The notes: generated by a model from the sequence alone, not told the origin. A DNA stretch of 64,000 nucleotides from Nannocystis pusilla (GCF_020073745.1 NZ_JAIRAU010000002.1:145694-209693); one strand, 5' to 3'. Counted from the stretch's first letter, positions 6,737-62,067 are shown. Program-made: numbers and translations.

Positions 6737-7045
6737 CTTCGCGAACTGCCGAATGCGCCTAGCGAGCGGTCGGGGATGCGGTCCTCCGCCCAGTCCTCGC
6801 GGATGGACCCTCCTTCGTCGGGCCCATCTCTCTGCGGATGGTCGGAGGACCGCATCCCCGACCGCTGGCACGGCCCACTCGTGGGTGGCCCGAAGCGCCG
6901 GTCGCGGGCTCCGCTGGCGGCTGTCTCTTCGCGCAGGTGCATTCCGCCCGAGGGACGGCCGGGGCCGGCCATCCCTCGGGCGGACCTCTCGACGTCATCG
7001 CCGGCGCTCGATCGTGACGCGACGATGTGCTGCTGCGCGACGCGG
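6737..7045 (+). repeat. ~305-bp structured non-coding repeat element, copy A
   Basis: Near-identical to 61766-62067 (+) and reverse-complementary to 58133-58436. Contains a perfect 17-bp inverted repeat GGGGATGCGGTCCTCCG (6772-6788) / CGGAGGACCGCATCCCC (6843-6859) with nested GATGG..CCATC and CCGAGGGACGGCCG..CGGCCATCCCTCGG stems. Confidence 0.8.
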
Positions 7046-7102
7046 GGGAGCGGGGCGGGGGGCTGCTTCGCTCGGAGGGCCTCTCGGCGAGGGGCGACGC
7101 GG

Positions 7103-7284
7103 CGCAGGGCGGCTCCGCCGGGAGCGCGGCTGTCGGGTCGTGTGGTGTCGACTCTTGCCGACGAATTCCACAGGCCTCGGCGGTGTGCCGGGCGACGCGG
7201 GGGCTCGGCACAGGGCGGCTCCGCTCGGAGTGCCGGTGTCGATGCTTGCCGACGAATTCTTGCAGGTGCCGCGAGCTCGGCGGG
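7103..7284. repeat. ~80-bp imperfect direct repeat x2 in long non-coding leader upstream of lipoprotein gene
   Basis: CAGGGCGGCTCCGC...GTGTCGA.TCTTGCCGACGAATTC appears at 7103-7183 and 7210-7284; the second copy has a 15-bp deletion. Confidence 0.6.
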
Positions 7285-7715
7285 TCGTGATGCTCGGCGC
7301 CGCGTGGGCGAGGCGGCGCGGGGGCAGCAACGGTGGCTCATCGGGCGCGGCGACGCTGCGGAGTCCGGACAGCTGCCCTTGTCACCTCGGCCCTTACCAC
7401 GACACGCCGATCATGGAGGCATTCTCGCCGCGATCCGTGCACTGCACTTCGCTGAGCGGTACCCGCAAGTTCGGCACTGCGGCCCGGGTACGAAAGTAGA
7501 AGCGCCCGCGAGGTGCGAAGCGTCGTGCTCGCCGGGCAGGCGCACGAGGTCCGCGGGATGGCCGGCGATGAGGCGTGATCGTTGGCCGCGAACGGCTTCT
7601 TACACCGGCGACGCGGGCCCACATGGCTGGCGACAGGTCGCGGCTCGCATCACTCGCGCCGCACCCGCCAGCGCGATGGATTCTTGATCGCGGCGGGCCG
7701 CTCTGGCATCTTGAG

Positions 7716-8672
7716 ATGGTGCGGTTTGGTTTTGGCGCGCGCCCGGCTGGCGCCGCCTGCTTCCTCTCGTGGCTGGTGACGACCGGGTGTAACCCCGGCC
7801 GGTCCGACGCGTCGTCGCGTGGTACCGACTCGGACGGCGCCGCTCCGTCGCAGGCCAGCGAGGGTGCCACCACCGGCGCGCCCGGGACGTCGACCGGTGA
7901 CGCGACGACGATCGCGACGACGACCGCGACCGGCGACCTCGCGCCCGAGGTCGCGCTCACGCCCGTCGAGCCGTGCGAGTCGCACGCCGCCGAGGCCGAC
8001 TGCGACGCCGCCGGCTGCATCTGGTTCGCCACCGAGCGCGTCGCCGACCGGGCCACCTGCGCCCTCGAGCCGGCGGGCGTTTGCGCCACCGCCAGCGCGT
8101 CGACCGGCGACGGGGACTACGACAGCGCCTTCTACAAGAAGATCGGCGAGGTGGTCCACGTGCGCCGCGTGGGCCGCAAGGCCAGCGATTTCCCCGGGCC
8201 CGAGCACCCGGCAGGCTGGACCGAGTGCGGCCTCGGGACCGACGACCCGCCCGAGTGCGCATGCGTGTGCGCGGCCGGACGATGCCCCGGCGACGTGGCG
8301 CTGGCGCTGCTCGACGCCTGCGCCTCGCCGCGCCCCTGCGTCGACAGCCCGGGCGGCGAGAGCGACGCCTGCCTCTACCAGGCCCTCGCCGCCGCGGCCG
8401 CCGCCAGCCTGCGCGTCAGCACGCTCACGGGCGATCGCAACGTCGACGACCGCGTGTTCCTCCGCGGCGACGGCACCGCGACCTGGATGCGCAGCACCTG
8501 CGACACGCGCGACCACAGCTGCCGCGACCGCAAGTGGGAGCTGCCGCGCCTGTGCAACCTCCGCGACCGCGCCGCCTTCACCGCCTGCGCCCAGGACAGC
8601 TCGGACCCGCAGTGCCGCGACGTCGCCGGCTGGTTCGTCGACTGCAAGCTGGCCCCGGCGACATGTCCTTGA
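7716..8672 (+). CDS. Cys-rich secreted lipoprotein
   Basis: MVRFGF...LVTTGC lipobox-type signal, Ser/Thr/Gly-rich linker, then >20 Cys in a C-terminal domain. Stop codon TGA lies inside a CATGTCC repeat unit (gcgACATGTCCTTGA). Confidence 0.6.
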   Translation: MVRFGFGARPAGAACFLSWLVTTGCNPGRSDASSRGTDSDGAAPSQASEGATTGAPGTSTGDATTIATTTATGDLAPEVALTPVEPCESHAAEADCDAAGCIWFATERVADRATCALEPAGVCATASASTGDGDYDSAFYKKIGEVVHVRRVGRKASDFPGPEHPAGWTECGLGTDDPPECACVCAAGRCPGDVALALLDACASPRPCVDSPGGESDACLYQALAAAAAASLRVSTLTGDRNVDDRVFLRGDGTATWMRSTCDTRDHSCRDRKWELPRLCNLRDRAAFTACAQDSSDPQCRDVAGWFVDCKLAPATCP

Positions 8673-8720
8673 GAGCATGCGCTGAACGCCGCCGCTCGCC
8701 GGGTTCAAGCGACATGTCCC
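8662..8720. repeat. CATGTCC units (GACATGTCC x2 plus CATGCG) at convergent junction
   Basis: GACATGTCC at 8661 and 8711, CATGCG at 8676 (14 bp after 8662). Lipoprotein stop codon lies inside the first unit. Confidence 0.55.
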
Positions 8721-8939: not shown

Positions 8940-10592
8940 CTAGATCGAGCCGTCATCGCCGCATGTGTCGTCCGGGCCCCACCAGACGGAGACCTCGACG
9001 CACAGCGCCGGGAGGTCGTGCGCCAGCGTCTCGGCGCTGAGCGGGTTGAGACTGAGGTCGATCCAGGCCCCGGGGGCGAGCCAGGGCGCGCCGCGCAGCG
9101 GCTCGACGCTCGTGATCGCGTTGTCGACGAGGCTGACGCTGGTCAGCGACTGGTAGGCCTGGAGCGGCGCGAGGTCGGCGATCGCGTTGCTGCTCAGTTC
9201 CAGCCTCTCCACCCGGCCCGGCGCGAGGACCGGCAGCTCGGTCAGCCCGGCCCCGTTCAGGAACACCCAGGTCAGGGCCGGATGCGCCGTGAACGCGTCG
9301 AGGCCCAGCTGCAGGGGGTTGTCGGAGAGGTCGAGGTACTCGAGCTTCAGCGCCGTGCCCAGCGGGCTCGCGTCGACGATCGCGTTGCCCGGCAGGATGA
9401 GGGAAGCGAGCGCCGGGTGCCCGGCGAGCGGCTGGAGGTCGACGATCGCGTTGCCGTCCGCCGTGAGCCGTACGAGCGCGCTCAGCCCCGCCAGTGGTTC
9501 GAGGTCGACGATCGCGTTGCCCTCGACGTACAGGTCCGTCAGCTGGCCCAGGCCCGCCAGCGGCCCGAGGTCGACGATGGCGTTGTCGACTGCGCCCAGG
9601 ATCTGCAGCGCGTCCTTGCCGCTCAGCGGCCCGAGGTCGACGATCGCGTTGCGGTCCATGATCAGATGCTGCAGCGCGCTCATGCTCGCCAGCGCCCCGA
9701 TGTCGGTGATCTGGTTGTCGGACAGCGCGAGGAACACGAGCTTGGTCAACGGTGCGAGCGGCGAGATGTCGGTGAGCCCGTTCGCCCGCACATCGAGCTC
9801 CTCCAACTGCACGAGCTGGCCCACGCTCGAGAAGGCCGCCAGGGGTATCGCGTGCGCCGTCAGGCTCCGCAGCGGCGAACCCACCAGCGGCTCGAACGAC
9901 GCGATCGGATGGTCGCTCACGAACAAATATTCGAGCCGGGGCAGCTGCGCCAGCGGGCCGAGGTCGCTGACCTGGCCCTTGTGCAAGACGAGCTGGCGGA
10001 GCTCGGGCAAGCCTGCGAGCGGGGCCAGATCGCTCAACGGCGCGTTGAACACGGAGAGCCAGGTGAGCTGCTGCAGGGCCGCGACCGGGCCGAGATCGAT
10101 GAGCACGCCCTGGCCGTCGCCGAAGAGCGAGAGCTCCTGGAGCTGCGTGAGGCACTCGATCCCGGCCAGCGTCTGCAACGGGCCGGTGTGCGCCAGCTTG
10201 AGCAGCGACGCGGCCTGCCCGGCGGAGAGCGGGCCGCCCTTGAGGCCGAGGTGATGGAAGATGCTCGCCGCCAGGCCCGGGTCCTCGATCACGAACTCGC
10301 CGCACACCGTGTTCGCCGGGTCGCCCGGCTCGGCGCCGCCCGTGGAGTCGTCGTGGGGCAAGCCCGTCTCGCTCGAGTCGGGCGATGCGTCGCTCGTCGC
10401 CGGCGACGGCTCGCCGGAGGTCGGCGCGCCGCTCGTGTCGTCGTGCTCGCTCGTCGCCGGCGCGCCGCTCGCGTCATCGTGCCGGTCGCCGTCGACGTCG
10501 CCGAGCGGCCGCGGCGTGCAGCTGCAACACGCCGTGACGATCGCCAGCCCCACCACCGACCCCCCGCCCCGCATGCTCCGAGTGTTCGCCAC
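8940..10592 (-). CDS. leucine-rich repeat (LRR) lipoprotein
   Basis: Signal with IVTAC lipobox, acidic linker, then ~15 tandem ~22-aa LRR units (L..L.L..N.I.D..PL..L). 550 aa. Confidence 0.7.
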   Translation of the reverse strand: MANTRSMRGGGSVVGLAIVTACCSCTPRPLGDVDGDRHDDASGAPATSEHDDTSGAPTSGEPSPATSDASPDSSETGLPHDDSTGGAEPGDPANTVCGEFVIEDPGLAASIFHHLGLKGGPLSAGQAASLLKLAHTGPLQTLAGIECLTQLQELSLFGDGQGVLIDLGPVAALQQLTWLSVFNAPLSDLAPLAGLPELRQLVLHKGQVSDLGPLAQLPRLEYLFVSDHPIASFEPLVGSPLRSLTAHAIPLAAFSSVGQLVQLEELDVRANGLTDISPLAPLTKLVFLALSDNQITDIGALASMSALQHLIMDRNAIVDLGPLSGKDALQILGAVDNAIVDLGPLAGLGQLTDLYVEGNAIVDLEPLAGLSALVRLTADGNAIVDLQPLAGHPALASLILPGNAIVDASPLGTALKLEYLDLSDNPLQLGLDAFTAHPALTWVFLNGAGLTELPVLAPGRVERLELSSNAIADLAPLQAYQSLTSVSLVDNAITSVEPLRGAPWLAPGAWIDLSLNPLSAETLAHDLPALCVEVSVWWGPDDTCGDDGSI

Positions 10593-10737: not shown

Positions 10738-11292
10738 ATGTTGCAGGTCAAGAAGTACGGCAATCGTCGGCTCTACGACACCGAGGGCAGCCGCTACGTC
10801 ACCCTCGAGGAGATCGCAGAGCGCGTCCGCATGGGCGAGGACCTCAAGGTCGTCGACGCCAAGAGCGGGCAGGACCTCACCCAGGTCACGCTCGCGCAGA
10901 TCATCCTCGAGAGCCGCGGGGCCGCCCGGCTGTTGCCGGTGTCCCTGCTCAAGCAGCTGGTGCGCATGCGGGACGACGCGCTCGCCGAATTCTTCGGCCG
11001 CTACGTCGCCTGGGCCCTCGAGGTGTACCTGCAGCTCAAGGGCAACGCGCGGGCGGTGGTCCCGTGGAACCCGCTCGCCGACCTGGCGATGCCGGGGATC
11101 CTCAAGCGCTGGTGCGGCGGCAGCGCGCCTGTGGCCGGTGAGCCTGCCCCCCCGCCGTTCCCCGACGAGCCGCCCGCCGAGGGCCCCGACATGTCCGACG
11201 AGCTCGCCGCGCTGCGCCGCGAGCTCGCCGAGCTGCGTCGCACCGTCGAGGACAGCCGGCCCGCCCGCAAGGGCAGGCGGCCCGCCTCGTGA
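10738..11292 (+). CDS. phaR: polyhydroxyalkanoate synthesis repressor PhaR
   Basis: N-terminus MLQVKKYGNRRLYDT is the hallmark PhaR DNA-binding motif. 184 aa. Confidence 0.8.
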   Translation: MLQVKKYGNRRLYDTEGSRYVTLEEIAERVRMGEDLKVVDAKSGQDLTQVTLAQIILESRGAARLLPVSLLKQLVRMRDDALAEFFGRYVAWALEVYLQLKGNARAVVPWNPLADLAMPGILKRWCGGSAPVAGEPAPPPFPDEPPAEGPDMSDELAALRRELAELRRTVEDSRPARKGRRPAS

Positions 11293-17352: not shown

Positions 17353-17380
17353 CATGTCCGACGGGACATGTGATGTGGCG
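17353..17380. repeat. 2-unit CATGTC array in divergent intergenic region
   Basis: CATGTC 17353, CATGTG 17367. Confidence 0.5.
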
Positions 17381-26161: not shown

Positions 26162-27571
<1,410 letters not shown>

Positions 27572-48783: not shown

Positions 48784-48808
48784 GCCGCGCGGCTCCTGAC
48801 TGAAAGGG

Positions 48809-48892
48809 CATGGCCGTGACGCCATGTCCTTTTTCACATGTGGCAGACGATATGTCCTCAGTGACATGTCCTCGACGACATGTCCTGAACCG
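48809..48892. repeat. 6-unit 14-bp CATGTCC array at convergent junction (Pro-rich protein / giant protein)
   Basis: CATGGC 48809, CATGTC 48823, CATGTG 48837, TATGTC 48851, CATGTC 48865, CATGTC 48879. Perfect 14-bp period. Confidence 0.85.
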
Positions 48893-48915: not shown

Positions 48916-51900
48916 TCAGTCCTCGCCGGCGGCGGGTGCCTCGTCGGGGCGGGCCTCGGCCGCCGGCGTGAAGTCCTCGCGGTTGCTGTCCCACCAGGCC
49001 TGCCAGGCGCGCAGGGCGAGGTCGCGGCTGCGCCGGTCGCCCTCGGCGGGGAACGGGATCCGCTGGCCGGTGATCCGCGCCAGCTCGTCGGCGGCCCAGC
49101 GGCGGACGGCCTCGTCGCGGTGGCGCAGGCCGTCGATGACCCACTCGATACGCGGCTCGTGGCCGTGCTCGGCGTACCAGGCGCGCCAGCGGGCGGCGCG
49201 GTAGCCGTGGTGCTTGGCGGTGATCGAGCACAGGGCCTCGAGCGCGGCCTCGCGGACGTGCTTGTCGCGCACGGCAAGGAGGTCGATGAGCCGCGGCACG
49301 GCGAGGGTGTCGCGCAGCGTGCCGGCGGCCTCGACCGCGAGCAGCTGGCGGTCGCGGTCACGGCTGTCGAGGTCCTCGCGGATCTCGGCGGCGACCGCGA
49401 CGAAGTCGGGCACGCGGCTGTACGACTCGAGCACGCGGGTGGCGATCAGGCGCACGTCGGGGTCGGTGTCGAACGCGAGCTCGCCGAGCGGGCGCAGGCA
49501 CCGGGGGTCGCGCAGCTCCTGGAACAGGAACGCGGCGTAGAAGCGGATCTGCGGCCGCACGCTGGCGAACAGCGCCAGGATGTGCGGGCTGACCGCGTGC
49601 CCGAGCTCGACGCAGGCGCGCAGCAGCGGGCCGTGGGCGCTCGGCGGCGGGAAGTTGGTCGCGTTCGCCAGGTCGATCGGCCCGGGGAAGCGCGCGGCCA
49701 GGCGGGCCAGGCCGCGCTGGTCGAGCGCCCGCAGCCGCGACACGCTGGTCCATTCGGCCGGGTCCTGCAGGAAGCCCTCGATGATCGCGTCGATCTCGTC
49801 GTCGCTGAGGGCCGCGCCGGCGCCGGTCGCCTCGGGCTCCTCGGCGGCCAGCTCCTCGGCGGGGGCGGGGGCCGGAGTCTGGCTGTCCTCGGCGACCTGC
49901 TCTTCGGGACCGGTCGCCGGGGGCATGTCCTCGACGACATGTTTGATGGCGCCGCGAGATGTCGAGGCGCTGGCCGGCTCGTCGGGCCCGTGTCGCATGA
50001 CGCCGCGGGAGGTCGAGGCGCCGGCCGAATCGTCGGGGCCGCGCCGCGTGGCCCCGCGGGAGATCGAGGCGCTGGCCGAATCGTCGGGCTCGTGCCGGAT
50101 GGCGCCGCGGGAGGTCGAGGCGCTGGCCGAATCGTCGGGGGCGTGCCGGATGGCGCCGCGGGAGGTCGAGGCGCTGGCCGGCTCGTCGAGCGCGTCGCCT
50201 GTCCCCGACTCGCGGACCAGCCGCGGCATGCTGAGCGCGCTCGAGGAGGCCTCGGAGCGCGGCTCCTGCTTGCCGCGGCGCCGCCCGCTGCGCGGGCCGA
50301 TCAGCGTGGTCGGTATCGACAGCGTGGCCGTGCTGTCCTCGCTGTCGCTCGGATCGCTGCGGCGCGCCATCGGGTGCGGGGTGGCCGTGAGCCCGCCCTG
50401 GCGCCGCAGGGTCTTCGGGATCACGAGCACCGGCTCCTCCTCGACCGGCGCGGGCGTGCGACGGCGGCGGCCGGCGCCCGGGGTCCCGGGCGGGGCGATC
50501 AGGTTGGGGATCAACGTCGACGGCGGGACCGCGGGATCGAGCGGCGGGATGTCGAGGACCGTCTCGGCATCCGGCGCCGCGCGCGTCTCCACCACCGGCG
50601 GCTCGTGGGCCGGCGGCGGCGAGAGGTCGAGGACCGTCGGCGTGTCGGAGGCGGCGCGCGGCCAGGCGTCGAACTCGGGGTCGGGCCCGGCCGCCCGCGC
50701 CCGCGCGGCCTCGTCGAGGACGACCCGCGGCGCGCCCGGCAAGGTCGCGGCGGGATCGAGGTCGGGGCCCCGCTCGGCCCCGGCGGCCGCGGCCCGCAGC
50801 GCGTCCGCCATCGGCAGCGGATCCTCGATGCCCGAGGCCTCGGAGGAGGCGATCCAGCCGGGCATGTCGGGTCCGCTCTCGGCTGGCGTGGAGGACATGT
50901 CGCTTCGCGCATGTCCAAAAGTATTGGGCCGATCGGACAGGTCGATGGTGACCGACGGCAGCGGCTTGGAGTAGAGGGCGGCGAAGCGGGCGACCAGGGG
51001 GCTGTCCCCGCCCTCGGGGCCGAGCGGCACCGGCACCGGCGCGAGCCCGAGGCCGGGCCCGTCGCGGCGGTCCTCCTCTTCTTCGCGCTCGAGCTCGGCG
51101 GCGTCGAGCCCGCCGGACTCGTCGGCGTCGGCGTCGATGTCGGCCTCGGTGGGCGCTTCTTCGGGCACCAGCGTCGGCGCGCGCGTGGCCGCGGAGCTCT
51201 CGGGGCGGACCGGCAGCGGCGTCACGGTCGACAGCTCGTCGCGCCGGATCGGGTTCTTCAGCGTGATGATCGCGCGCCCGCGGTTGTTGCCGCGGCCGCG
51301 CGAGCGGCTGGTCGAGGCGCTGTCGCCGAAGCCGGGCTCGACGGTGCCGCCGGCCGGGGGCAGGGACGCCTCGTGCTCTTCGGCCGCGGGGGTGGGCTCG
51401 GCCGGGGCCGACGCGGCGACCTGCGGCGCGCTGTCCTCGGCGTCGTTCGTGCTCGCGGCGTCGCTCTCGTCGACCGTGACCACCGGCGTCGCGAGGTGCG
51501 GCCGCGCGGCCGGGCGCGAGCGATCGGCCGGACCCGCCCCGGGCGTGCCGCCGGGCACGACCCATCCGAGCAGTCGGAGCAGGGCCTCGAGGCTCTGCCT
51601 CGCGGTGTCGCACAGCTCGCGCACGACGGTCCGCTCGCGCGGATCGAAGGCGACGCCGGCCCGGTCGAGGTAGAGCATCAGGACGGTGCGGCCCCCGGCG
51701 AGGACCGGCTCGAAGACGCAGGGGATCCCGAGCGGCTGACCCACCGCGGACGACAGGCTCGGCTCGGCCAGCAGGTGCAGCGGACCCTGGCCGGTGACGG
51801 CGCGATCGAGCAGGCCGCCCTCGGGCAAGGCGAGCACGACGCCCTCGGCCAGCTGCAGGGCGCTGCCGGGCGCGGCCAGGACGCGCAGGCCCTCGCGCTT

Positions 51901-54114
51901 GACCCCGAACAGGGCGACGCGGGGGGCGATCAGCGACGCCGCGCGCACCAGCGCCTCGGTGATCCGGTCGCGCTCGCGCGCGGTCGCCAGCGCGGCCCGG
52001 GCGGCGTCGAGCCGCTGCGCCAGGGTCATGACCATCGCCTGCGGCGGCGGCGGCGGCTTGCGGGACGACGACTCGACCATCCCATGGCTGGTCGAAGAGG
52101 CAGGTGAATCCTGGTCCGGCTCGGCCGGGCTCGAGCTGGCCGTCGGGACAGGCGTGATCGGGGCGGAGACGGCGGCGGCCGTCGGGTGGGCGACGCCGTT
52201 GCTCGGGCCGTGCGCGGCCGGGGTGGGCGCGTGGCTGTCCGATGAGACAGGTGACGGCCGTTCGGAAGCGGGGGCCGCGGCCGGGCGCTCGAGCGCCGGG
52301 CTCTGGCTGGGCCGCTCACGGGCGGCGGCCGGCCACGCCGCGGTCTCCCTGCTCGAAGAGACAGGCGTGACCGCGAACTTGGCGGGGCCGGTGCGCTCCG
52401 GGGCGGCGCCCTCGGCCGGCAAGATGATGAGCGGGGTGTCCGGGGCGATCGCCAGCCCCGACAGCGAGGCGCCGCCGAAGCCCTCGAAGCCGCGCGGGGC
52501 GACGAGCGGCGCGTCGGGAGCCACCGGGACCGCCTCCATCCCGACGGGCGGGCGGTTGGCGACGGCGGCGGCGATCGGCATCGGCGCGGTCCCGGTGGCC
52601 CGGCTGGGGGCGAGCTCGGGGGCGGGGGCGTCGGTGACCGACGGCGCCGGGCGCGGAGCTGCTTCTTCGGCCCTGTCTGCCGGGACAGATTCGGATCGCG
52701 CGGGCGCTTCGGGTCCGCGTGAGGCAGGAGCTGGCGGTCCGGCCGGCTCGGCGCCGGAGGGCCCGGCCGTCGAGGTCGCGGGCGCTGTTGCTTCGAGGCT
52801 ATCCTCTGGGGCAGGAGGGGCCGGGGCCGCCGCGCTGGCACTCGCCGGCTCGACGGCGAGCGGGGAGGGGGCGTCCGCGCGGTCCGCCTCGGCCTGCGCC
52901 GTGCTGGTGTCCGGCGCCGGTGAAGCTGCGGCGAGGTCGTGGGCGTCCGACCCGACGGTCGTGGGCGGGGCGACGGCCGCGGTGCTGTCCGAAGAGGCAG
53001 GTTCGGACGCGGCTGTGGTGCTGTCCGAAGGGACAGGCTCGGGCGCGGCGCTGATGCTGTCCGAAGGGACAGGTTCTGGCGCAGCCGCGATACTGTCCGA
53101 TGAGACGGGTTCGGGCGCGGCTGCGGTGTTGTCCGAGGGGACAGGTTCGGGCGCGGCCGCGGTGCTGCTCGAAGAGGCAGGTTCGGGTGCGGCTTCGGTG
53201 CTGTCTGAAGAGGCAGGTTCGGGTGCGGCCTCGGCGCTGCTGTCCGAACGGTCAGGCGCGGCGGGCCGGGGCTCGACGCCGTCGTCCGAACGGTCGGGCG
53301 CGCCGCTCGGGACGACAGCCGTGGCCTGGGCCTCGGCGCTGCTGCCCGAAGGGACAGGTGAATCCGCAACGCTTTCGGGAACCGGAGCGGCCAGGTCGGC
53401 AGAGACCGGCGTCGCGCCGCTGCTGTCCGCGGCTCCGGCCCTGTCCGAAGCGACAGGCGTGGCCGCCGGCGAGCTCGCGCTGCTGTCCGAAGAGACAGGC
53501 GGCGCCGAGCTGGCGCGCGCGGCCACGGCCGGGCCCGACATCGCGGCCGGGCGCGGGCCGGCGTTCTGCCTGTCCCCCGGGACAGGTACGTCCTGGAGCG
53601 GCGCGTCCGAGGCCGGCAGGTGGACCGTGGGGGTCGTGCTGCGCAGCGCCTCGAGGTAGTCGAGCAGGATCAGCGCGTAGCGCGGGGCCAGGATGGCGCC
53701 GGTGCGCTCGACGGCGACCTTGGCCAGGCAGCACTCGGGCGCGACCACCGGGTAGAAGCCGCGGATCAGGCGGTACAGCTGGCCGAGCTTGGCGTCGGGC
53801 AGGTCGGGGTGGACGGCGACGATCAGGCGCCCGTCCTCGGCCGCGAGGGGCATGGCCCAGCCGATGTCGACCAGGTCCTTCGGGACATGTTCCCAGGGCC
53901 GGGTCGGTCCGCGCTCGAGCAGCCGCACCGGCGCGCCCGGGAGGCCGCAGGCGCTCTGCAGCAGGGCGTCGAGCGCGAGCGGGGTCATCAGGCCGAGCTC
54001 GAGGATCGCGGTGTCGAGGCTGCCGCCGGCCTGCTGTTGCCGCCGGGTCGCGGCCTCGAGATCGGCGCGCGACAGCGGACCGTTGGCTTCGAGGTGGCGC
54101 AGGAGGAGGCTCAC
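48916..54114 (-). CDS. giant multidomain protein: N-terminal GspE-N/MshEN-like domain, long acidic Ser/Pro/Ala low-complexity tandem repeats, C-terminal HEAT repeats
   Basis: GTG start at 54114 overlaps the RDD gene stop (GTGA). N-terminus LLRHLEANGPLSRADLEAATRRQQQAGGSLDTAILELGLMTPLALDALL matches the T2SSE_N/MshEN fold. C-terminal ~300 aa are HEAT/PBS-lyase-like (DPDVRLIATRVL, DKHVREAALEAL, DEAVRRWAADEL). The upstream 394 aa of ORF 48916..55296 are Arg-rich read-through. Confidence 0.6.
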   Translation of the reverse strand: MSLLLRHLEANGPLSRADLEAATRRQQQAGGSLDTAILELGLMTPLALDALLQSACGLPGAPVRLLERGPTRPWEHVPKDLVDIGWAMPLAAEDGRLIVAVHPDLPDAKLGQLYRLIRGFYPVVAPECCLAKVAVERTGAILAPRYALILLDYLEALRSTTPTVHLPASDAPLQDVPVPGDRQNAGPRPAAMSGPAVAARASSAPPVSSDSSASSPAATPVASDRAGAADSSGATPVSADLAAPVPESVADSPVPSGSSAEAQATAVVPSGAPDRSDDGVEPRPAAPDRSDSSAEAAPEPASSDSTEAAPEPASSSSTAAAPEPVPSDNTAAAPEPVSSDSIAAAPEPVPSDSISAAPEPVPSDSTTAASEPASSDSTAAVAPPTTVGSDAHDLAAASPAPDTSTAQAEADRADAPSPLAVEPASASAAAPAPPAPEDSLEATAPATSTAGPSGAEPAGPPAPASRGPEAPARSESVPADRAEEAAPRPAPSVTDAPAPELAPSRATGTAPMPIAAAVANRPPVGMEAVPVAPDAPLVAPRGFEGFGGASLSGLAIAPDTPLIILPAEGAAPERTGPAKFAVTPVSSSRETAAWPAAARERPSQSPALERPAAAPASERPSPVSSDSHAPTPAAHGPSNGVAHPTAAAVSAPITPVPTASSSPAEPDQDSPASSTSHGMVESSSRKPPPPPQAMVMTLAQRLDAARAALATARERDRITEALVRAASLIAPRVALFGVKREGLRVLAAPGSALQLAEGVVLALPEGGLLDRAVTGQGPLHLLAEPSLSSAVGQPLGIPCVFEPVLAGGRTVLMLYLDRAGVAFDPRERTVVRELCDTARQSLEALLRLLGWVVPGGTPGAGPADRSRPAARPHLATPVVTVDESDAASTNDAEDSAPQVAASAPAEPTPAAEEHEASLPPAGGTVEPGFGDSASTSRSRGRGNNRGRAIITLKNPIRRDELSTVTPLPVRPESSAATRAPTLVPEEAPTEADIDADADESGGLDAAELEREEEEDRRDGPGLGLAPVPVPLGPEGGDSPLVARFAALYSKPLPSVTIDLSDRPNTFGHARSDMSSTPAESGPDMPGWIASSEASGIEDPLPMADALRAAAAGAERGPDLDPAATLPGAPRVVLDEAARARAAGPDPEFDAWPRAASDTPTVLDLSPPPAHEPPVVETRAAPDAETVLDIPPLDPAVPPSTLIPNLIAPPGTPGAGRRRRTPAPVEEEPVLVIPKTLRRQGGLTATPHPMARRSDPSDSEDSTATLSIPTTLIGPRSGRRRGKQEPRSEASSSALSMPRLVRESGTGDALDEPASASTSRGAIRHAPDDSASASTSRGAIRHEPDDSASASISRGATRRGPDDSAGASTSRGVMRHGPDEPASASTSRGAIKHVVEDMPPATGPEEQVAEDSQTPAPAPAEELAAEEPEATGAGAALSDDEIDAIIEGFLQDPAEWTSVSRLRALDQRGLARLAARFPGPIDLANATNFPPPSAHGPLLRACVELGHAVSPHILALFASVRPQIRFYAAFLFQELRDPRCLRPLGELAFDTDPDVRLIATRVLESYSRVPDFVAVAAEIREDLDSRDRDRQLLAVEAAGTLRDTLAVPRLIDLLAVRDKHVREAALEALCSITAKHHGYRAARWRAWYAEHGHEPRIEWVIDGLRHRDEAVRRWAADELARITGQRIPFPAEGDRRSRDLALRAWQAWWDSNREDFTPAAEARPDEAPAAGED
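49950..50215. repeat. intragenic ~60-bp tandem repeat (5 units) in giant protein gene
   Basis: Units GCGCCGCGGGAGGTCGAGGCGCTGGCCGAATCGTCGGG(G/C)... encode repeated ASTSRGAIRH(A/E)PDDSAS on the minus strand. Confidence 0.75.
52960..53260. repeat. intragenic ~36-42-bp tandem repeat (~7 units) containing CTGTCCGAAGGGACAG inverted motif
   Basis: Units GTGCTGTCCGAAGGGACAGGTTCGGGCGCGGC... encode APEPVPSDS(I/T)(S/A)A repeats on the minus strand. Confidence 0.75.
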
Positions 54115-56651: not shown

Positions 56652-56879
56652 ATGGTGGCATTTACGGGAGTCAAAGTGTTCTCGGCGACCAAGGCTTGGG
56701 AGCGCGAGCAGATCAGCGATCGCATCAACGAGTGGCTCGAGGCCAACCCCGGCGTGGAGATCGTCGACAAGGTGGTCACCCAGAGCTCCGACAGCGAGTT
56801 TCACTGCCTGACCATCACCCTGTTCTACAGCCGCCCGACCAGCCGTGGTGCCGCCGCTCAAGCGTCTGCGGCGCCCTGA
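56652..56879 (+). CDS. small hypothetical protein (75 aa)
   Basis: Good RBS (GGGAGAGG) 4 nt before ATG. Located in an AT-richer intergenic region. No recognisable family. Confidence 0.4.
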   Translation: MVAFTGVKVFSATKAWEREQISDRINEWLEANPGVEIVDKVVTQSSDSEFHCLTITLFYSRPTSRGAAAQASAAP

Positions 56880-57097
56880 CGCGCCAGCCGCCGCGTGCGA
56901 GCAGCCTGATAGAGCCTTTCGCCTTGCGAGAGCCGGCGCCGTCCGCGTCGGCTGTCGAGCTTTCTGACCGCGGGCACGCCTCGCCGACGTCGTCGCTCTC
57001 GCGTCCGTGTCTCGGCAGTACGGGACAGGTCCCAAGAGACAGTTTCGACGCGCGCCGCTTGTCGCGCCGACCGGCCTGCGGGTATGGTGCGGCGGCG

Positions 57098-58090
57098 ATG
57101 GCACGGGGGCGGCTCAGCGTCGAGGCGTACGCGGCGGGGGTGAGGGCAGGCGAGCGGGCGGTGCTGGCGCGGGCGATCACGTTGGTCGAGAGCCAGCGCG
57201 CCGACGATCAGGCGCTCGCGCGCGAGCTGGTGGCCGAGCTGCAGGCCGACGCCGGCGGCTCGCTGCGCGTCGGCGTGACCGGCAGTCCCGGGGCCGGCAA
57301 GAGCACCCTGATCGAGGCGCTCGGTCTTCACCTCGTGCGGGACCTCGGCCGCCGCGTCGCCGTCCTGGCCGTCGATCCCAGCTCCGTGCGCAGCGGCGGC
57401 AGCATCCTCGGCGACAAGACGCGCATGCAGGAGCTGGCCCGCGAGCCTCGCGCCTTCATCCGGCCTTCGCCCTCGCTCGGCGAGCTCGGCGGCGTCGCGC
57501 GTCACACCCGCGAGACCGTGCTCTTGTGTGAAGCGTCCGGCTTCGACGTCGTCCTCGTCGAGACAGTCGGCGTCGGCCAGTCCGAGGTCATGGTCGCCCA
57601 GCTCGTCGACTGCTTCCTCGTCCTCATGCTCGCCGGCGCCGGCGACGAGCTGCAGGGCATCAAGCGCGGGATCCTCGAGCTCGCCGACATCCTCGCCATC
57701 ACCAAGGCCGACGGCGACAACACCGCCGCCGCCGAGCGAGCCCGCGCCGAGTACGCCCTGGCGATGCGCCTCATCCGCCCCAAGCACCCCGGCTGGTCCG
57801 TGCCCGTCGTCACCACCTCCTCCGTCACCGGCGCCGGCCTCGCCGCACTGTGGCAGACCGTCGAGCGTCACCGCCTGGCCCTTCAGTCAGGTCCCGCCTG
57901 GCAGGCCCAGCGCGAGGCGCAGCACGTCTACTGGCTCTGGCGCGCCATCGAGGCCGAACTGATGCGCCGCTTCGCCGCCGACCCCGCCGTGCTCGCCCGC
58001 CGCCCCGAGCTCGAAGCCGCCGTCCGCAGCGGCCGCCTCAGCCCCGACCACGCCGCCGCCGAACTGCTCGCCGCCTTCACCGGCCGCTGA
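57098..58090 (+). CDS. meaB: methylmalonyl-CoA mutase-associated GTPase MeaB/ArgK family
   Basis: Walker A GSPGAGKST, switch motifs, NKAD-like ITKAD. 330 aa. Confidence 0.8.
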   Translation: MARGRLSVEAYAAGVRAGERAVLARAITLVESQRADDQALARELVAELQADAGGSLRVGVTGSPGAGKSTLIEALGLHLVRDLGRRVAVLAVDPSSVRSGGSILGDKTRMQELAREPRAFIRPSPSLGELGGVARHTRETVLLCEASGFDVVLVETVGVGQSEVMVAQLVDCFLVLMLAGAGDELQGIKRGILELADILAITKADGDNTAAAERARAEYALAMRLIRPKHPGWSVPVVTTSSVTGAGLAALWQTVERHRLALQSGPAWQAQREAQHVYWLWRAIEAELMRRFAADPAVLARRPELEAAVRSGRLSPDHAAAELLAAFTGR

Positions 58091-58132
58091 CGCCGACGCG
58101 GCCTTGTCGCAGTCGATCGTCGCGGAGCGAGG

Positions 58133-58436
58133 TCGTCGCGCAGCACATCGTCGCGCTGCGAGCGAGCGCCGGATAGGACGCCCAGAGGTCCGTCCGAGGG
58201 ATGGCCGGCCCCGGCCGTCCCTCGGGCGGAATGTACCTGCGCGAAGAGACAGCCTCCAGCGAAGCCCGCGACCGGCGCTCGGGCCACCCACGAGTGGGCC
58301 GTGCCAGCGGTCGGGGGTGCGGTCCTCCGACCATCCGCAGAGAGATGGGCCCGACGAAGGAGGGTCCATCCGCGAGGACTGGGCGGAGGACCGCATCCCC
58401 GGCCGCCCGCGAGGCGCATTCGGCAGTTCGCGAAGC
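58133..58436 (-). repeat. ~305-bp structured non-coding repeat element, copy B (inverted)
   Basis: Reverse complement of copy A, including the 17-bp stem arms. Directly followed (58479-58535) by a 4-unit CATGTC array at the same end of the element as in copy A. Confidence 0.8.
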
Positions 58437-58478
58437 ACGAGCACCAGGCCTTCGCGCCCCGCACCCTGCGACAAGAGA

Positions 58479-58535
58479 CATGCCCGAACAAGCATGTCTG
58501 AAAGACAATGCTCCTCAAGACATGTCCTTCTCGCC
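58479..58535. repeat. 4-unit 14-bp CATGTC array
   Basis: CATGCC 58479, CATGTC 58493, CAATGC 58507, CATGTC 58521. Confidence 0.75.
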
Positions 58536-58550
58536 AGAGAAAGGGAGGCG

Positions 58551-59960
58551 CTAGGAGCCCTGGCCGGTGAGGTCGATGCGCCGCCACGCCCCGTTGCGGA
58601 AGCGCAGCACCAGCACCAGCGCGAGGAACACCATGTACACGACCATGCTCCACGTCGCCGCGACCGCGCCGCCCTGCCACACGAACACGCTGAGCCACGC
58701 CAGCGGCAGCCAGATCGCCCACGAGACGGTGATGCGGGCCGCGAGCGGCCACGCCGTGTCGCCGGCCGCGCGCAGCGCCTCGTTGATCGTCATCACGGCG
58801 GCGTCGAGGAGCTGCCACACCGCGCTGATCGCCAGCAGCTGGGCGCCGAGGACCACCACGGCGCTCGAGCCCGCGACCTCGTCGCGGGCGAAGATCATCA
58901 TCAACGGCACCGGGACGGCGAAGTAGAGCAGGCCGACCAGTCCTTGCCAGCAGGCGGCGACCGAGAAGGTCTGGCGCACGAGTCGGGGCACCTGGTCGTG
59001 GTGGCCGCCGCCGATCGCCTGGCCGACCAGCACGGCGCCGGCCGAGGCGAGGCCGAACGCCGGCATGAACGACACCGAGTTGACCGCGCTCACCGCCATG
59101 AGCGCCGCGACGGCGACCGTCCCGAGCTCGGCGAGCACGACGTTGATGAAGATCAGGAAGGCCGCGAACTCGAGGAACCAGTTGAGGCCGTTCGGCAGGC
59201 CGAAGCGCATCATCCGCGAGAACTCGCGCGCGTTGAGGCGGCCGTCCGAGCTGGCTGGAAGGACAGGTAAGGCGTGTTCGACGGGGCCGAGCATCGCGGG
59301 GTCGACGGCGGACTGCTTGCGCGCGCGCCAGAACGCGTGGCAGGCGACGGCGAAGCCGGCGACGCTGGCGAGCACGCTGGCCCACGCGGCGCCCTGGACC
59401 CCGAGGGCCGGCGCGCCGAGGTTGCCGTAGATCAGGACCCAGTTGAGGACGATGTTGACGACCATCGCCGTCAAGCTGGCGCGCATCGCCACCTGCGTGT
59501 CGCCGAGGCCGGCGAACCAGTTGCCGAGCGCCTCGGCGCCGACGACCACGCCGGCGCTGACCATGCGGATCGCCATGTAGTCGGCCATCACCTCGCGCAC
59601 CGCCGGCGTGTGGCCGGTCAGCGCGAGGAGCGGGTCGATCGCCGGGATCGCAGCGACGCCTGCGAGCATCGCCAGGGCGGCGAGCCACAGGCCGTACCAG
59701 GCGTAGCGGCGCGCGCTGGCGAGGTCGCCCTGGCCGGCCAGCTGGGCCGCGTAGCTCTGGACGATGAACGTGATGCCCATCGGCAGCACGAGGAGCGCGA
59801 ACGAGTTCAGGGCCCCGGTGGTCGCGGCCGCGAGCGCGTCGTCGCCGAGCGGGGCGACCATCGCGGCGTCGCTGAAGCTGATCACCGACTGCGCCGAGCG
59901 TGCGAGCACGATCGGCCAGGCCAGGGTGATGAGCGCGCGGAGTCCCGGGGCCGTGGACAT
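58551..59960 (-). CDS. MATE family efflux transporter
   Basis: 12 TM, duplicated MATE domains. 469 aa. Confidence 0.75.
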   Translation of the reverse strand: MSTAPGLRALITLAWPIVLARSAQSVISFSDAAMVAPLGDDALAAATTGALNSFALLVLPMGITFIVQSYAAQLAGQGDLASARRYAWYGLWLAALAMLAGVAAIPAIDPLLALTGHTPAVREVMADYMAIRMVSAGVVVGAEALGNWFAGLGDTQVAMRASLTAMVVNIVLNWVLIYGNLGAPALGVQGAAWASVLASVAGFAVACHAFWRARKQSAVDPAMLGPVEHALPVLPASSDGRLNAREFSRMMRFGLPNGLNWFLEFAAFLIFINVVLAELGTVAVAALMAVSAVNSVSFMPAFGLASAGAVLVGQAIGGGHHDQVPRLVRQTFSVAACWQGLVGLLYFAVPVPLMMIFARDEVAGSSAVVVLGAQLLAISAVWQLLDAAVMTINEALRAAGDTAWPLAARITVSWAIWLPLAWLSVFVWQGGAVAATWSMVVYMVFLALVLVLRFRNGAWRRIDLTGQGS

Positions 59961-60003
59961 GGGCGCGGGAGGATACTCGCTCGCGCCCGCGCCGTCTCGC
60001 GCG

Positions 60004-61593
60004 TCAGGGCGCGCGCGTGAACTGGGCAGCCGCCGGATCGACGAGGCTGTCGACGCTCACGCGCCCGTTGATGGCGAGGTGGCGCAAGACCTGCCACACG
60101 GCCACGGGATCGGCGCCGAGCGCCTCGGCGAGCTCGCGACAGGTCTTGCCTCCAGGGCCGCCGGGCAGCGCCGAAAGCACCGCGCCCTGCAGCTGCAGCA
60201 CGCCCTTCGCCGCCTGCTTGCCGGCCTCGACGCCGGGCTGGTGATAGGCGTTGACGTCGATCAGCTCGGCGTAGATCCCGACCGCGCGCTCGAACAGCGC
60301 GATCATGGCGCCCACCGCGGCGGCGTCGACGTCGCGCAGCACGAGCGTCGCGCTGGCGCGCCCGCGCTCGGCCAGGGCGGCGCGCGTGCCCTGGTAGAAG
60401 CCGTCGAGGCAGTCGCCCGAGCTCACGCGCGGCTCGACCTCGACCTGGCCCGGACCCGTGACCTGGCCGTCGAGGTCGCGCAGCACCCGCACGAACACCG
60501 CGAAGAAGTTGTGAAGGCCGTCGCGCAGCTGCTGCACGTAGGCGTGCTGGTCGGTCGAGCCCTTGTTGCCGTAGACCGCGAGGCCCTGCCACACCTCGCG
60601 CCCCTGGCGATCGAGCCGCTTGCCCAGCGACTCCATCACCAGCTGCTGCAGGTAGCGCGACAGCAGCGACAGGCGATCTTTGTATGGCAGGATGACCATG
60701 TCCCGAAGGCCATGTCCCTGGCCCTGCTGGTACCACAGCCACGCCAGCAGCGCGGCCGGGTTGCGCCGCGCCGGGCGCACGCGGCCCCACTGGTCCATGG
60801 CCGCGGCCCCGCGCAGCAGGCCGCGCCAGTCGTGCCCCAGCAGCGCGGCCGGCAGCAGGCCGACGGGCGAGAGGACGCTGGTGCGCCCGCCGACCCAGTC
60901 CCACATCGGGAAGCGCGCCAGCCAGCCCTCGCGCGTCGCCAGTTCGTCGAGCTGGCTGCCCTCCATGGTGATGGCGACGGCTCGCTTCGGGAATTCGATG
61001 GCCTGGCGCGCACACGCGGCCCGCAGCTCGAGCATGCCGTTGCGCGTCTCGGTGGTCGAGCCCGACTTGGAGACGACGAGGATCAGCGTCTGCGCCAAAG
61101 TACCTGTCTCTGCGAGCAGGTCGGCGATGCCGGCCGGATCGGTGTTGTCGAGCACGCGCAGGCGGAAGCCGGGCCCGCTGTCGCGCGGGGTCAACGCGGC
61201 CTCGAGCAGCTGCGGCCCGAGCGCGCTGCCGCCGATCCCGACGAGGATCGCGCCGGTGAACGGCCGCCCGTCGTCGCCGGCGATCTGGCCGCTGCGCACG
61301 CCGGCCGCGAAGGCCTCGATGCTCCGCCAGCTGGCGTGGATAGCGACGGCGATCTGGGGGTCGGGCGCCCGCTCCGGGTCGCGCAGCCAGTAGTGCCCGA
61401 CCATGCGCCCCTCGTCGATGTTGGCGACGGCTCCGCCCTCGATCCGGTGGAGAGCGTCGAGCGCAGCCTCGAGCCGCGAGGCGTTGGCGGTCAGCGAGGG
61501 CTCGTCGAGCTGGGCGTCGGCGAAGTCGAGCTCGATGTCGAGTTCGGCACGGTAAAGGCGCCAGGTGAGGTAGTGGTCGAGTGTGTCGGCCAT
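60004..61593 (-). CDS. pgi: glucose-6-phosphate isomerase
   Basis: VGIGGSALGPQ and SKSGSTTET PGI signatures. 529 aa. Confidence 0.85.
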   Translation of the reverse strand: MADTLDHYLTWRLYRAELDIELDFADAQLDEPSLTANASRLEAALDALHRIEGGAVANIDEGRMVGHYWLRDPERAPDPQIAVAIHASWRSIEAFAAGVRSGQIAGDDGRPFTGAILVGIGGSALGPQLLEAALTPRDSGPGFRLRVLDNTDPAGIADLLAETGTLAQTLILVVSKSGSTTETRNGMLELRAACARQAIEFPKRAVAITMEGSQLDELATREGWLARFPMWDWVGGRTSVLSPVGLLPAALLGHDWRGLLRGAAAMDQWGRVRPARRNPAALLAWLWYQQGQGHGLRDMVILPYKDRLSLLSRYLQQLVMESLGKRLDRQGREVWQGLAVYGNKGSTDQHAYVQQLRDGLHNFFAVFVRVLRDLDGQVTGPGQVEVEPRVSSGDCLDGFYQGTRAALAERGRASATLVLRDVDAAAVGAMIALFERAVGIYAELIDVNAYHQPGVEAGKQAAKGVLQLQGAVLSALPGGPGGKTCRELAEALGADPVAVWQVLRHLAINGRVSVDSLVDPAAAQFTRAP

Positions 61594-61678
61594 GTGCGCG
61601 CTTTATAGCAGCGTCGCGCGGGGACGGCTGGGGTCGACGAGCCGCTGCGGGCGGGCGGCTGCCTCGGCTGGGGCCGGT

Positions 61679-61774
61679 GGGCTGATGTTCGGGGTTCTTG
61701 GCGGGCTGGTGTTCGGGGGGCGCGGCGGGCTGGTGTTCGGGGGGCGCGGCGGGCCGGCGTTCGGGGTTCGCGAA
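61679..61774. repeat. 4 x 24-bp tandem repeat (GGGCTGGTGTTCGGGGGGCGCGGC)
   Basis: Four consecutive units; the two central ones are identical. Immediately precedes structured repeat copy C. Confidence 0.75.
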
Positions 61775-62067
61775 CTGCCGAATGCGCCTCGCGGGCGGCC
61801 GGGGATGCGGTCCTCCGCCCAGTCCTCGCGGATGGACCCTCCTTCGTCGGGCCCATCTCTCTGCGGATGGTCGGAGGACCGCATCCCCGACCGCTGGCAC
61901 GGCCCACCCGTGGGTGGCCCGAGCGCCGGTCGCGGGCTTCGCTGGGAGCTGTCTTTTCGAGCAGGTGCACTCCGCCCGAGGGACGGCCGGGGCCGGCCAT
62001 CCCTCGGACGGACCTCTGGGCGCGGTATCCGGCGCTCGCTCGTGGCGCGACGATGTGCTGGGCGACG
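61766..62067 (+). repeat. ~305-bp structured non-coding repeat element, copy C
   Basis: Starts TTCGCGAACTGCCGAATGCGCC as copy A. About 92% identical, with small indels that break every reading frame. Confidence 0.8.

Follow-up and report, generated by a model that had tools for sequence, protein, structure and literature searches.

What kind of element is represented by a repeat of about 300 bases that occurs three times between the genes of a single stretch of Nannocystis DNA (64,000 nucleotides, hereafter the window)? The original prediction had described copies of about 305 bp and about 90% identity, forming a MITE-like or structured-RNA element that might be mobilised together with an adjoining array of CATGTC units. 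Three copies, A, B and C, were confirmed where they had been placed; each is non-coding and intergenic, they are 91-95% identical to one another in the copy-to-copy matrix, and the conserved unit proved slightly shorter, measuring about 300 bp, to which a few semi-conserved bases can be added (Table 1). A profile HMM located the copies at 6734-7034 (A), 58131-58440 (B) and 61761-62070 (C). Repeat comparison gave 93% identity over 333 nt for B and C, 97% and 91% in two blocks for A and B, and 97% and 88% for A and C.

Table 1. Positions, in the window, of the element, its predicted structural parts and the adjacent repeats; signs in brackets give the working strand.
Feature	Copy A	Copy B	Copy C	Remarks
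Element, about 300 nt	6737-7038 (-)	58135-58435 (+)	61766-62066 (-)	C is the oldest site
Closing stem, 5' side (UCGCG..AC)	7014-7022 (-)	58151-58159	62042-62050	
Closing stem, pairing partner (GU.CGCGA in A)	6739-6746	58426-58433	61768-61775	3' end of the unit
Stem P2, 5' arm (GAGCGCCGG in A)	7001-7009 (-)	58164-58172	62029-62037	Encloses H2
Stem P2, pairing partner	6892-6901	58272-58280	61921-61929	
Hairpin H2	6943-6984 (-)	58189-58230	61971-62012	19 bp, CCCC loop
Long hairpin	6750-6881 (-)	58291-58422	61779-61910	About 41 predicted pairs (A)
CATGTC array, 14-bp period (CATGTC/GACATG in A)	6658-6707	58477-58526		Separate from the element
Tandem repeat, 4.1 x 24 bp (GGGGCGCGGCGGGCTGGTGTTCGG)			61670-61766	Abuts the working-strand 3' end of C
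5'-end tandem reiteration, 15-16 bp, about 2.8 copies		58116-58161 (+)		

A lineage-restricted non-coding element

The repeat is lineage-restricted and non-coding. The flanking genes show a GC3 periodicity of about 0.95, which disappears across 6650-7700, and copies A, B and C differ by single-base indels; the short ORFs predicted across the element are thus spurious, as had been proposed. The six frames are largely open, which might suggest that the repeat is a fragment of a protein-coding gene or simply a local segmental duplication, although this is usual at 72% GC. Besides the missing periodicity and the indels, a six-frame protein search of the element returned no match, the substitutions in its stems are compensatory (see below), the copies have sharp common ends with unrelated flanks, and a fourth copy, D, lies elsewhere in N. 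radixulma. Such an origin is therefore effectively refuted.

A fold selected on the opposite strand

A perfect 17-bp inverted repeat (GGGGATGCGGTCCTCCG / CGGAGGACCGCATCCCC) had been reported for every copy. It is perfect in A and C, whereas B has a single T to C change (in the orientation originally used), which gives G-U when read on the opposite strand. All three copies also contain the second hairpin, CCGCCCGAGGGA.GGCCGG..CCGGCC.TCCCTCGGGCGG. For copy A the folding energy was lower on the opposite strand (-204.4 kcal/mol, z = -9.6) than on the strand first described (-196.2 kcal/mol, z = -6.9); no shuffle came as low as either value, and the consensus energies were -174.8 and -160.8, respectively.

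The expectation of a conserved RNA structure was borne out by covariation, with 13 pairs changed on both sides compared with 3.4 +/- 1.6 in shuffles (0 of 500 shuffles scored as high) and 0-4 in slid controls; 97% of the alignment cells are paired in the consensus structure. For the 62 pairs common to the predictions for both strands, every cell that departs from Watson-Crick pairing is G-U when read on the opposite strand, and the helix-internal positions 191/282, 193/280, 197/276, 229/245, 71/104 and 80/95 are G-U there and A-C on the strand first described. Since one-sided stem changes yield G-U pairs only on the opposite strand, the working strand is minus for A and C and plus for B, the reverse complement of what had been described, and a single-stranded fold is under selection on that strand.

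In working-strand order the unit consists of a 7-bp closing stem, a 5' domain in which stem P2 surrounds the 19-bp hairpin H2, and a long hairpin of about 130 nt whose internal loops are sequence-invariant. Within the long hairpin of copy A lie the 17-bp inverted repeat (6772-6788 / 6843-6859) and an apical stem-loop (6802-6828) with the working-strand loop GACGAAGGA; helix 8 of this hairpin has seven pairs changed on both sides, and the one-sided changes are all G-U on the working strand. Four pairs of H2 (helix 5) are changed on both sides in N. bainbridge, where two U-G pairs have also become C-G, and this N. bainbridge copy, only 74-79% identical to the others, combines compensatory stem substitutions with invariant loops. 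Stem P2, whose 5' arm includes an invariant GAGC motif, is predicted to be paired in 100% of cases, and because its sequence never varies it gives no covariation signal. The closing stem (columns 29-37 with 306-313) is kept in eight of nine copies and shows zero covariation; it is broken in copy C of N. radixulma, yet an alternative local hairpin there is compensated.

Genomic context and spread of the copies

The spacer that holds copy A measures 1.07 kb; it is bounded by an alpha/beta-hydrolase gene (plus strand, stop at 6644) and a lipoprotein-like gene (plus strand, start at about 7716), and the working strand of A is antisense to both. Copy B starts about 26-45 nt past the stop codon of a MeaB GTPase gene (56696-58090) that has the same orientation; after B come a CATGTC array and then a convergent MATE gene. 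Copy C is found 173 nt upstream of the co-oriented pgi gene (60004-61593) and downstream of a UDP-glucose pyrophosphorylase gene (62673-63797), between two co-oriented genes, and copy D (N. radixulma, L089) begins about 25 nt past the stop of a co-oriented gene. Read along the working strand, the downstream neighbours are thus the hydrolase gene for A and the MATE gene for B, both on the opposite strand, and pgi for C. The position relative to start codons is inconsistent among the three copies, and nothing supports the RNA thermometer that had been suggested.

The location of B and D, both starting about 25 nt past a stop codon, and of C between co-oriented genes, together with the high stability of the hairpins, would suit a cis-acting RNA element of 3' UTRs or intercistronic regions, with a REP-, ERIC- or BIME-like role as stabiliser, processing site or terminator. 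Nevertheless, co-orientation at three of four sites is not significant and copy A is antisense to both neighbours; moreover, a stabiliser needs no invariant loop sequence and a U-tract is absent, so we consider this role quite improbable.

Covariation together with invariant loops is what a functional RNA classically shows, and it is reasonable to ask if the copies form a host small-RNA gene family of paralogous trans-acting regulators, duplicated by ordinary recombination, that would act through the conserved loops (GACGAAGGA at the apex, and CCCC) by base-pairing or protein binding. In keeping with this, site C is kept in at least three species-level lineages, and the orthologous copies are as similar (94-96% identity) as the coding DNA around them. 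On the other hand, scans for sigma-70 promoters and intrinsic terminators, which are weak for myxobacteria, gave no convincing signal flanking any copy, and the contexts differ, A being antisense between genes, B in a 3' UTR and C between operon genes. The single GGA-type loop indicates that the RNA is not of the CsrA-sponge type, and sharp common boundaries with a burst of new copies at unrelated sites resemble insertion rather than segmental duplication. A regulatory family of this kind is therefore unlikely.

The strain of the window is close to N. radixulma, which has the same three copies in addition to D. The ortholog of copy A lies at L030:903-1208 in N. radixulma, and site A is empty in N. 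pusilla (L143) and in L144-L146; the ortholog of copy B is at L001:5976-6276, and site B is empty in N. bainbridge (L121) and also in L122 and L124. Site C is filled in N. radixulma (L001:912-1213), in the metagenome contigs L122 and L123 and in N. bainbridge (L121:7962-8263), and empty in L124, L125 and L140. Identity is 90-96% between paralogs, 86-89% for the L122 copy and 74-79% for that of N. bainbridge. The empty A and B sites of these relatives point to a recent spread, and the element thus behaves as mobile or duplicative: site C, upstream of pgi, holds one old copy, and A, B and D arose in an ancestor shared with N. radixulma.

The array beside A and B and the 24-bp tandem repeat beside C are present as described, the latter being local to C and absent beside A and B. 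Joint mobilisation with the array was not upheld. CATGTC arrays occur in at least 15 further places in the window, mostly 10-25 nt past stop codons; an array of the same kind follows the orthologous hydrolase gene of N. pusilla, and arrays follow both the MeaB and the MATE stops at site B of N. bainbridge, the element being absent in either case, whereas at site C of N. bainbridge an array stands on the element's other side. Because arrays are present at empty A and B sites, they are not co-mobilised with the element; they are unrelated neighbours, a separate genome-wide feature found just past gene ends. The tandem reiteration at the 5' end of copy B is the local form of 5' repeats that vary among relatives, reaching 5 x 53 bp in L089 and including partial 5' units in L001 and L030.

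Mobility of this kind could also be that of a non-autonomous transposon working at the DNA level, either a MITE or a derivative of a single-strand (HUH-type) transposon, mobilised by a transposase encoded elsewhere, its hairpins serving as recognition structures on one DNA strand. Like MITEs and other small repeats (Correia/NEMIS, ERIC, RUP, Nezha), the element is short (below 600 bp), lies between genes in several copies, encodes no protein and is confined to a lineage, its sites being filled in some species and empty in others, and MITE-type small repeats can fold as RNA when co-transcribed. Single-stranded DNA would account for the strand asymmetry of the element just as well as RNA would, G-T being the mildest of the DNA mismatches, and the two independent insertions A and B came to lie 30-55 nt from a CATGTC array able to form hairpins, each turning the same end towards it. 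Most copies have a short direct repeat, GTGCTG(C/G), at their left flank and again at their right end, which could be a preferred target or cleavage motif; it is the same at essentially all copies and therefore is not a classical target-site duplication but a part of the element or a target preference. Of the MITE-like character originally proposed, the mobile or duplicative behaviour thus stands, but the element has no site-specific target duplications and no clear terminal inverted repeats beyond an imperfect match of about 7 bp (TCGCG..AC / GT.CGCGA). Unlike MITEs, the whole 300-nt unit is conserved, with covarying stems at 74-79% identity and invariant internal loops (about 54 nt) that exceed what transposon ends need.

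Derivatives of IS200/IS605 (PATEs) and their guide-RNA scaffolds (omega RNA, HEARO) offer a parallel in their strand-specific folds, sharp end and multiple copies without any need for inverted repeats. Nonetheless, the element lacks the similar subterminal hairpins that IS200/IS605 have at both ends, having a small local hairpin only at the working-strand 3' end; no transposase, tnpA, tnpB or iscB gene was found in the flanks examined, and neither HEARO nor any other Rfam model was matched. A transposon of either type appears doubtful.

A possible retron-type gene and its counterparts

We tentatively favour, with a probability of about 0.38, the reading that the unit is a retron-type msr-msd gene without its own reverse transcriptase (RT), like the "msDNA-like repetitive sequences" of N. 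exedens, and that it is copied in trans. Transcription of the unit, either on its own or as read-through of the gene before it, would yield an RNA that folds with paired ends; a retron RT encoded elsewhere in the genome might then recognise the 5' domain and copy the long hairpin into single-stranded DNA, and an occasional full-length cDNA could enter intergenic DNA and so generate new copies. If this is true, the unit is an enzyme-less retron RNA gene copy, a kind of repeat reported once before in Nannocystis.

[quoted passage not shown] The 19-bp hairpin and 9-bp stem of the 5' domain, however, exceed the typical msr stems, and retron mobility has never been demonstrated (PMC7736814). In retrons the complementary ends (a1/a2) span about 8-30 nt, and the priming G belongs to a conserved (T/C/G)AGC at or just past the 3' end of the 5' arm. 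In favour of the retron-type reading, an invariant GAGC, the priming context listed for Mx65, follows the closing stem at a distance of 5-8 nt; its G, though, is predicted to be paired in P2 and is not at the end of the closing stem, and a nearer GAGC is mutated in four of nine copies. The closing stem also counts against this reading, having only 7 bp, no covariation and a break in one copy. DNA template switching, furthermore, can retain seemingly compensatory changes in palindromes without selection on RNA.

A retron ncRNA has its RT gene immediately downstream, in one transcription unit with it. A search of the window and eight Nannocystis-clade loci for ORFs of at least 200 aa with Y/F-x-DD plus NAxxH or VTG detected no RT, and the N. 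exedens precedent (Ne160) likewise has none nearby. Rfam models, including retron msr, gave no match at gathering score in the 64-kb window, and relaxing the cut-off to E <= 10 over 6500-7500 brought up nothing but generic long-hairpin (miRNA) matches.

Compared with REP and BIME sequences, the unit shares the character of an extragenic palindrome often placed just past stop codons. REPs are imperfect palindromes of 20-40 nt that carry a GTAG head and go together with RAYT transposases; the unit is ten times longer, more complex and without a GTAG head, and the CATGTC arrays are the more REP-like feature of this genome. As a separate observation, unrelated REP-like palindromes in Blastocatellia show GTAGG...CCTAC.

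The ncRNAs of type XIII myxobacterial retrons (Mx162, Mx65, Sa163, Ne144) differ from the unit, which is multicopy, lacks an adjacent RT and SWIM/HEAT accessory genes, has a 7-bp closing stem and a 19-bp hairpin in the 5' domain, and matches no Rfam msr model. The predicted paired ends of the unit, its structured 5' domain and long 3' hairpin resemble theirs, as do an AGC-type motif near the 5' stem, selection on the RNA strand and vertical inheritance within the clade.

The nearest counterpart may be the "msDNA-like" repeats of N. exedens (Retron-Nex1/Ne160; Lampson & Rice 1997, as summarised in PMC6868368), a species to which N. bainbridge is described as phylogenetically nearest. The present copies are dispersed over 55 kb, and across contigs in N. 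radixulma, and the N. exedens repeats, as far as that summary describes them, may be arranged differently. Set side by side from the descriptions, the two nevertheless share the genus, several copies of msr-msd size, a long hairpin, reiterated parts of the unit and, as far as summarised, no RT within about 1 kb.

Copies, neighbourhoods and spread of the element

A repeat finder and a profile HMM located three copies of the structured repeat, A, B and C, at the places that had been assigned to them in the original prediction (Table). B and C are 93% identical over 333 nt, A and B share two blocks of 97% and 91% identity, and A and C show 97% and 88% identity. The 17-bp inverted repeat is free of mismatches in A and C and carries one change in B, and the second hairpin was found in all three copies. 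Given that the flanking genes have a strong third-position GC bias, which is not seen across the element region, and that the copies differ by single-base indels, the ORFs called across it are spurious and the element is non-coding, as had been proposed, which calls for caution in annotation. Consequently, a coding sequence or plain duplication can hardly be entertained. A concatenated six-frame translation, used to seek copies via spurious ORF calls, gave 0 matches against 5.8 billion proteins.

Table. Positions of element copies, associated repeats and sequence motifs
Feature	Sequence	Position	Working strand	Profile HMM
Copy A, conserved unit	window	6737-7038	-	6734-7034
Copy B, conserved unit	window	58135-58435	+	58131-58440
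Copy C, conserved unit	window	61766-62066	-	61761-62070
Copy D	N. radixulma L089	5763-6066		
CATGTC array by copy A	window	6658-6707		
CATGTC array by copy B	window	58477-58526		
4.1 x 24-bp tandem repeat by copy C	window	61670-61766		
(G)GACATGTC(C)-type arrays	window	2451-2514, 4507-4526, 6658-6707, 8660-8718, 12961, 17353-17370, 21562-21601, 36480-36529, 48807-48884, 49924-49941, 50863-50915, 58477-58526		
(G)GACATGTC(C)-type arrays	N. bainbridge L121	7678-7760, 11430-11525, 13380-13450		
(G)GACATGTC(C)-type arrays	N. pusilla L143	about 10925-11020		
Prepilin/pseudopilin-type motif ...GMTLIEILVVLAII...	window	34267, 34749, 35746, 36519		
MAG palindromes (examples among L002-L120)	L003, L005, L009	4111-4179, 4107-4174, 5930-6005 respectively		

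Scanning species-representative genomes with the 11-bp stem pair gave at least 120 matches, among them unrelated REP-like palindromes of Blastocatellia and other phyla that share the 11-mer, and at least four copies were present in N. radixulma among the matches listed. Three of these are the orthologous counterparts of A, B and C, while the fourth, D, occupies another locus; in the flanks the window and N. radixulma are 91-96% identical, and the MATE protein is 95% identical. Orthologous loci were retrieved via the flanking MATE and hydrolase proteins. Site C, upstream of pgi, holds a copy of 86-89% identity in a metagenome relative (contigs L122 and L123) and one of 74-79% in N. bainbridge, and is empty in the more distant relatives L124, L125 and L140, where the spacer measures just 93-137 bp. 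The element is missing from site B, the MeaB/MATE spacer, in N. bainbridge, L122 and L124, and from site A, beside the hydrolase gene, in N. pusilla L143 and three metagenome relatives (L144-L146), in agreement with the mobile-like behaviour predicted. Together with the identities (94-96% between orthologs, 90-96% between paralogs), this pattern indicates that C is the old copy and that A, B and D were gained in the ancestor shared by the window strain and N. radixulma. The element is lineage-restricted, recently proliferating and non-coding. Intergenic DNA at the empty sites was too diverged to align, leaving the insertion junctions imprecise.

Searches of 1.2 Mb of compared sequence using nhmmer and a nine-copy profile detected no further or degenerate copies, just tandem 5' partial units. 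A metagenome scan with the conserved loop pattern returned 0 matches, though one JGI contig carries that pattern; the 13 matches of a second such scan showed no homology and were discarded as chance, as was the one match from two viral-contig scans, which sits in a 55% GC coding region. Many Blastocatellia/Acidobacteriota MAG contigs contain long palindromes that follow the pattern ..GTA(T/G)GGGCGGTCCTCCGTGGCCGCCCC..loop..GGGGCGGCCACGGAGGACCGCCC(A/C)TAC.., also found in single contigs of Aliidongia, Clostridia, Akkermansia, Massilia and others. They look REP-like, judging by their GTAGG/CCTAC heads, and have the 11-mer GCGGTCCTCCG in common with the Nannocystis stem and no other homology.

Copy A is antisense, with the hydrolase gene on one side and a lipoprotein-like gene on the other. 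About 26-45 nt separate the MeaB stop from the start of B, pgi follows C after 173 nt, and D comes after a small membrane-protein gene. A role as a cis 3'-UTR element is quite improbable, and an RNA thermometer, suggested originally, or a riboswitch was rejected because placement relative to start codons is inconsistent. A host sRNA family is unlikely; scans of the copies for sigma-70 promoters and terminators gave nothing, and a sigma-54-like TGGCAC within the unit was dismissed by eye, its -12 element being missing. A CsrA sponge was likewise rejected, given the single GGA loop.

Several features were observed in the surrounding DNA. A DUF1963 gene separates MATE and MeaB in N. radixulma (L001 4502-5836) and N. 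bainbridge and is missing from the window (58436-58551), so that the MATE stop there adjoins the array and copy B. Just past copy D (L089 5608-5760, minus strand), an open frame of 50 codons whose end reads ...HVEGLFPRATWRALLDDVGFVMDEF... has a GC3 of 0.80 and no Pfam match; by eye it resembles the C-terminus of a SAM-dependent methyltransferase and could be a gene remnant cut off by insertion. The stretch that separates copy C from the UDP-glucose pyrophosphorylase gene holds an open frame (window 62117-62663, +) whose N-terminus is lipoprotein-like; it has a GC3 of just 0.82, no Pfam match and no counterpart in the shorter N. bainbridge and L122 spacers, and may not be a real gene. Farther away, a long co-oriented block on the + strand (window about 26100-40400) with repeated prepilin/pseudopilin-type N-terminal motifs probably encodes type II secretion or a type IV pilus. 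Window tandem repeats with periods of 36, 66, 51 and 48 bp (52938-53265, 9343-9720, 49947-50201 and 24664-24829) probably belong to repeat-containing proteins, since all periods are multiples of three.

A fold under selection on one strand

Copy A folds at -196.2 kcal/mol (z = -6.9) in the orientation originally described and at -204.4 kcal/mol (z = -9.6) on the opposite strand. In the reverse-complement alignment of nine sequences, 97% of cells are paired, and 13 pairs show changes in both partners; shuffles gave 3.4 +/- 1.6 (0/500 as high) and slid partners 0-4, in a sample comprising three diverged lineages only. In L122 and N. bainbridge L121 the 17-bp stem reads GGGGA(A/C)GCGGGTCGGCG ... 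CGCCGACCCGC(T/G)TCCCC, with five pairs altered on both sides; the inner stem has a G-C to C-G swap in diverged copies, and four pairs of the 19-bp hairpin H2 are doubly altered in N. bainbridge. By comparison, hardly any sequence variation is seen in the ~54-nt interior of the long hairpin. The consensus fold reaches -174.8 kcal/mol on the reverse strand versus -160.8 on the original one, and one-sided changes in well-supported helices all give G-U on the former and A-C on the latter. Therefore, the fold is under selection on one strand, A(-), B(+), C(-); the conserved RNA structure that had been predicted was upheld by covariation, and the strand proposed for it was not.

On this working strand the predicted fold has three parts, namely a 7-bp closing stem joining the unit ends, a 5' domain in which the invariant stem P2 (GAGCGCCGG/CCGGCGCUC) surrounds H2, and a long hairpin of ~130 nt with the apical loop GACGAAGGA. 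Because neither the closing stem nor P2 shows any variation, both lie outside the reach of the covariation test. Compensatory changes carry the caveat that DNA template switching can also preserve palindrome symmetry, and a DNA-level MITE or HUH-type derivative is judged an unlikely account of the element. No transposase, reverse transcriptase or other shared gene was linked to it in the window or in the relatives' loci.

CATGTC arrays as a separate genomic signal

The CATGTC arrays beside A and B and the 24-bp repeat beside C are present as described. Words similar to GGCATGTC occur 130 times in the window versus 64 expected and cluster at a 14-bp period in at least 15 places, typically 10-25 nt past stop codons. 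In N. pusilla an array follows the hydrolase gene where the element is missing, in N. bainbridge arrays follow the MATE, MeaB and UDP-glucose pyrophosphorylase genes, and at N. bainbridge site C the array is on the element's other side. Arrays at sites lacking the element, and this reversed placement, refute the proposal that array and element move together; in annotation, the arrays should be treated as a separate genome-wide signal. The original description as structured, non-coding and mobile-like was sustained, and its strand and array link were not. A and B each lie 30-55 nt from an array with the same end toward it, and arrays are possible preferred landing zones. The (G)GACATGTC(C)-type words have a 14-bp period, often in alternating orientation, and neighbours can form 7-8-bp hairpins. 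This feature is kept across N. radixulma, N. bainbridge and N. pusilla, and it is possible that it serves as a REP-like element, terminator or protein-binding array.

Some copies are preceded, on the working strand, by tandem reiterations of the unit's first ~50 nt. At D these measure 5 x 53 bp, the N. radixulma copies A, B and C have partial units, and B in the window has a 15-16-bp form. When the flanks were inspected for target-site duplications, most copies showed a short direct repeat, GTGCTG(C/G), in the left flank and again at the right end; since it does not differ from site to site, it does not qualify as a classical target duplication. A second set of intergenic direct repeats of ~100 bp (motif GGTGTCGA..CTTGCCGACGAATTC) lies beside copy A, with two units in the window (7043-7330) and more in N. 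radixulma (L030 1210-1800), and the spacer evolves fast between the two.

Comparison with retrons

In the favoured reading, the element may be a retron-type RNA gene copied in trans, with a probability of about 0.38. The msDNA expected under this reading would be about 160 nt long, its 5' terminus falling slightly inward of the TTCGCGAA end and its 3' terminus close to GAGCGCCGG. More tentatively, the copies would be enzyme-less working retron RNA genes that share a single distant reverse transcriptase acting in trans and that multiply by retroposition; if unrelated to retrons, they might form a wholly undescribed class of ~300-nt structured RNA spreading as a mobile element. A motif scan of the window and fetched Nannocystis loci revealed no reverse transcriptase, which fits the retron precedent and also counts against a retron reading. 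Rfam, searched at the gathering score and at E <= 10, gave no family and no msr match, just generic hairpin noise.

A 1997 study reportedly held a hint of retrotransposed msDNA-like repeats in Nannocystis, which to our knowledge has not been revisited with genomes. If the reading as retroposing retron RNA genes is true, the copies would be the bacterial counterpart of SINEs and would provide, for the first time, evidence at the sequence level that retron RNAs can move. With or without that link, they are a clean case of a lineage-specific structured-RNA repeat, still spreading, and the dated filled and empty sites, covariation-supported fold and defined working strand make the mobility question directly testable. 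Retron mobility has never been demonstrated (PMC7736814). The closest precedent is the msDNA-like repeats of the same genus, for which Simon et al. (PMC6868368) cite Lampson & Rice 1997, a paper whose title speaks of a possible retrotransposition event. The species described as nearest to N. exedens is N. bainbridge. Against the retron reading stand the short closing stem, an unusually long 5' hairpin and a GAGC whose G is predicted to be paired. In its favour, the predicted architecture broadly fits general accounts of msr-msd: the ends would be paired, the 5' domain is structured, the 3' hairpin is long, an unvarying GAGC lies close to the 5' stem, and the unit is large enough for an msDNA of ~160 nt.
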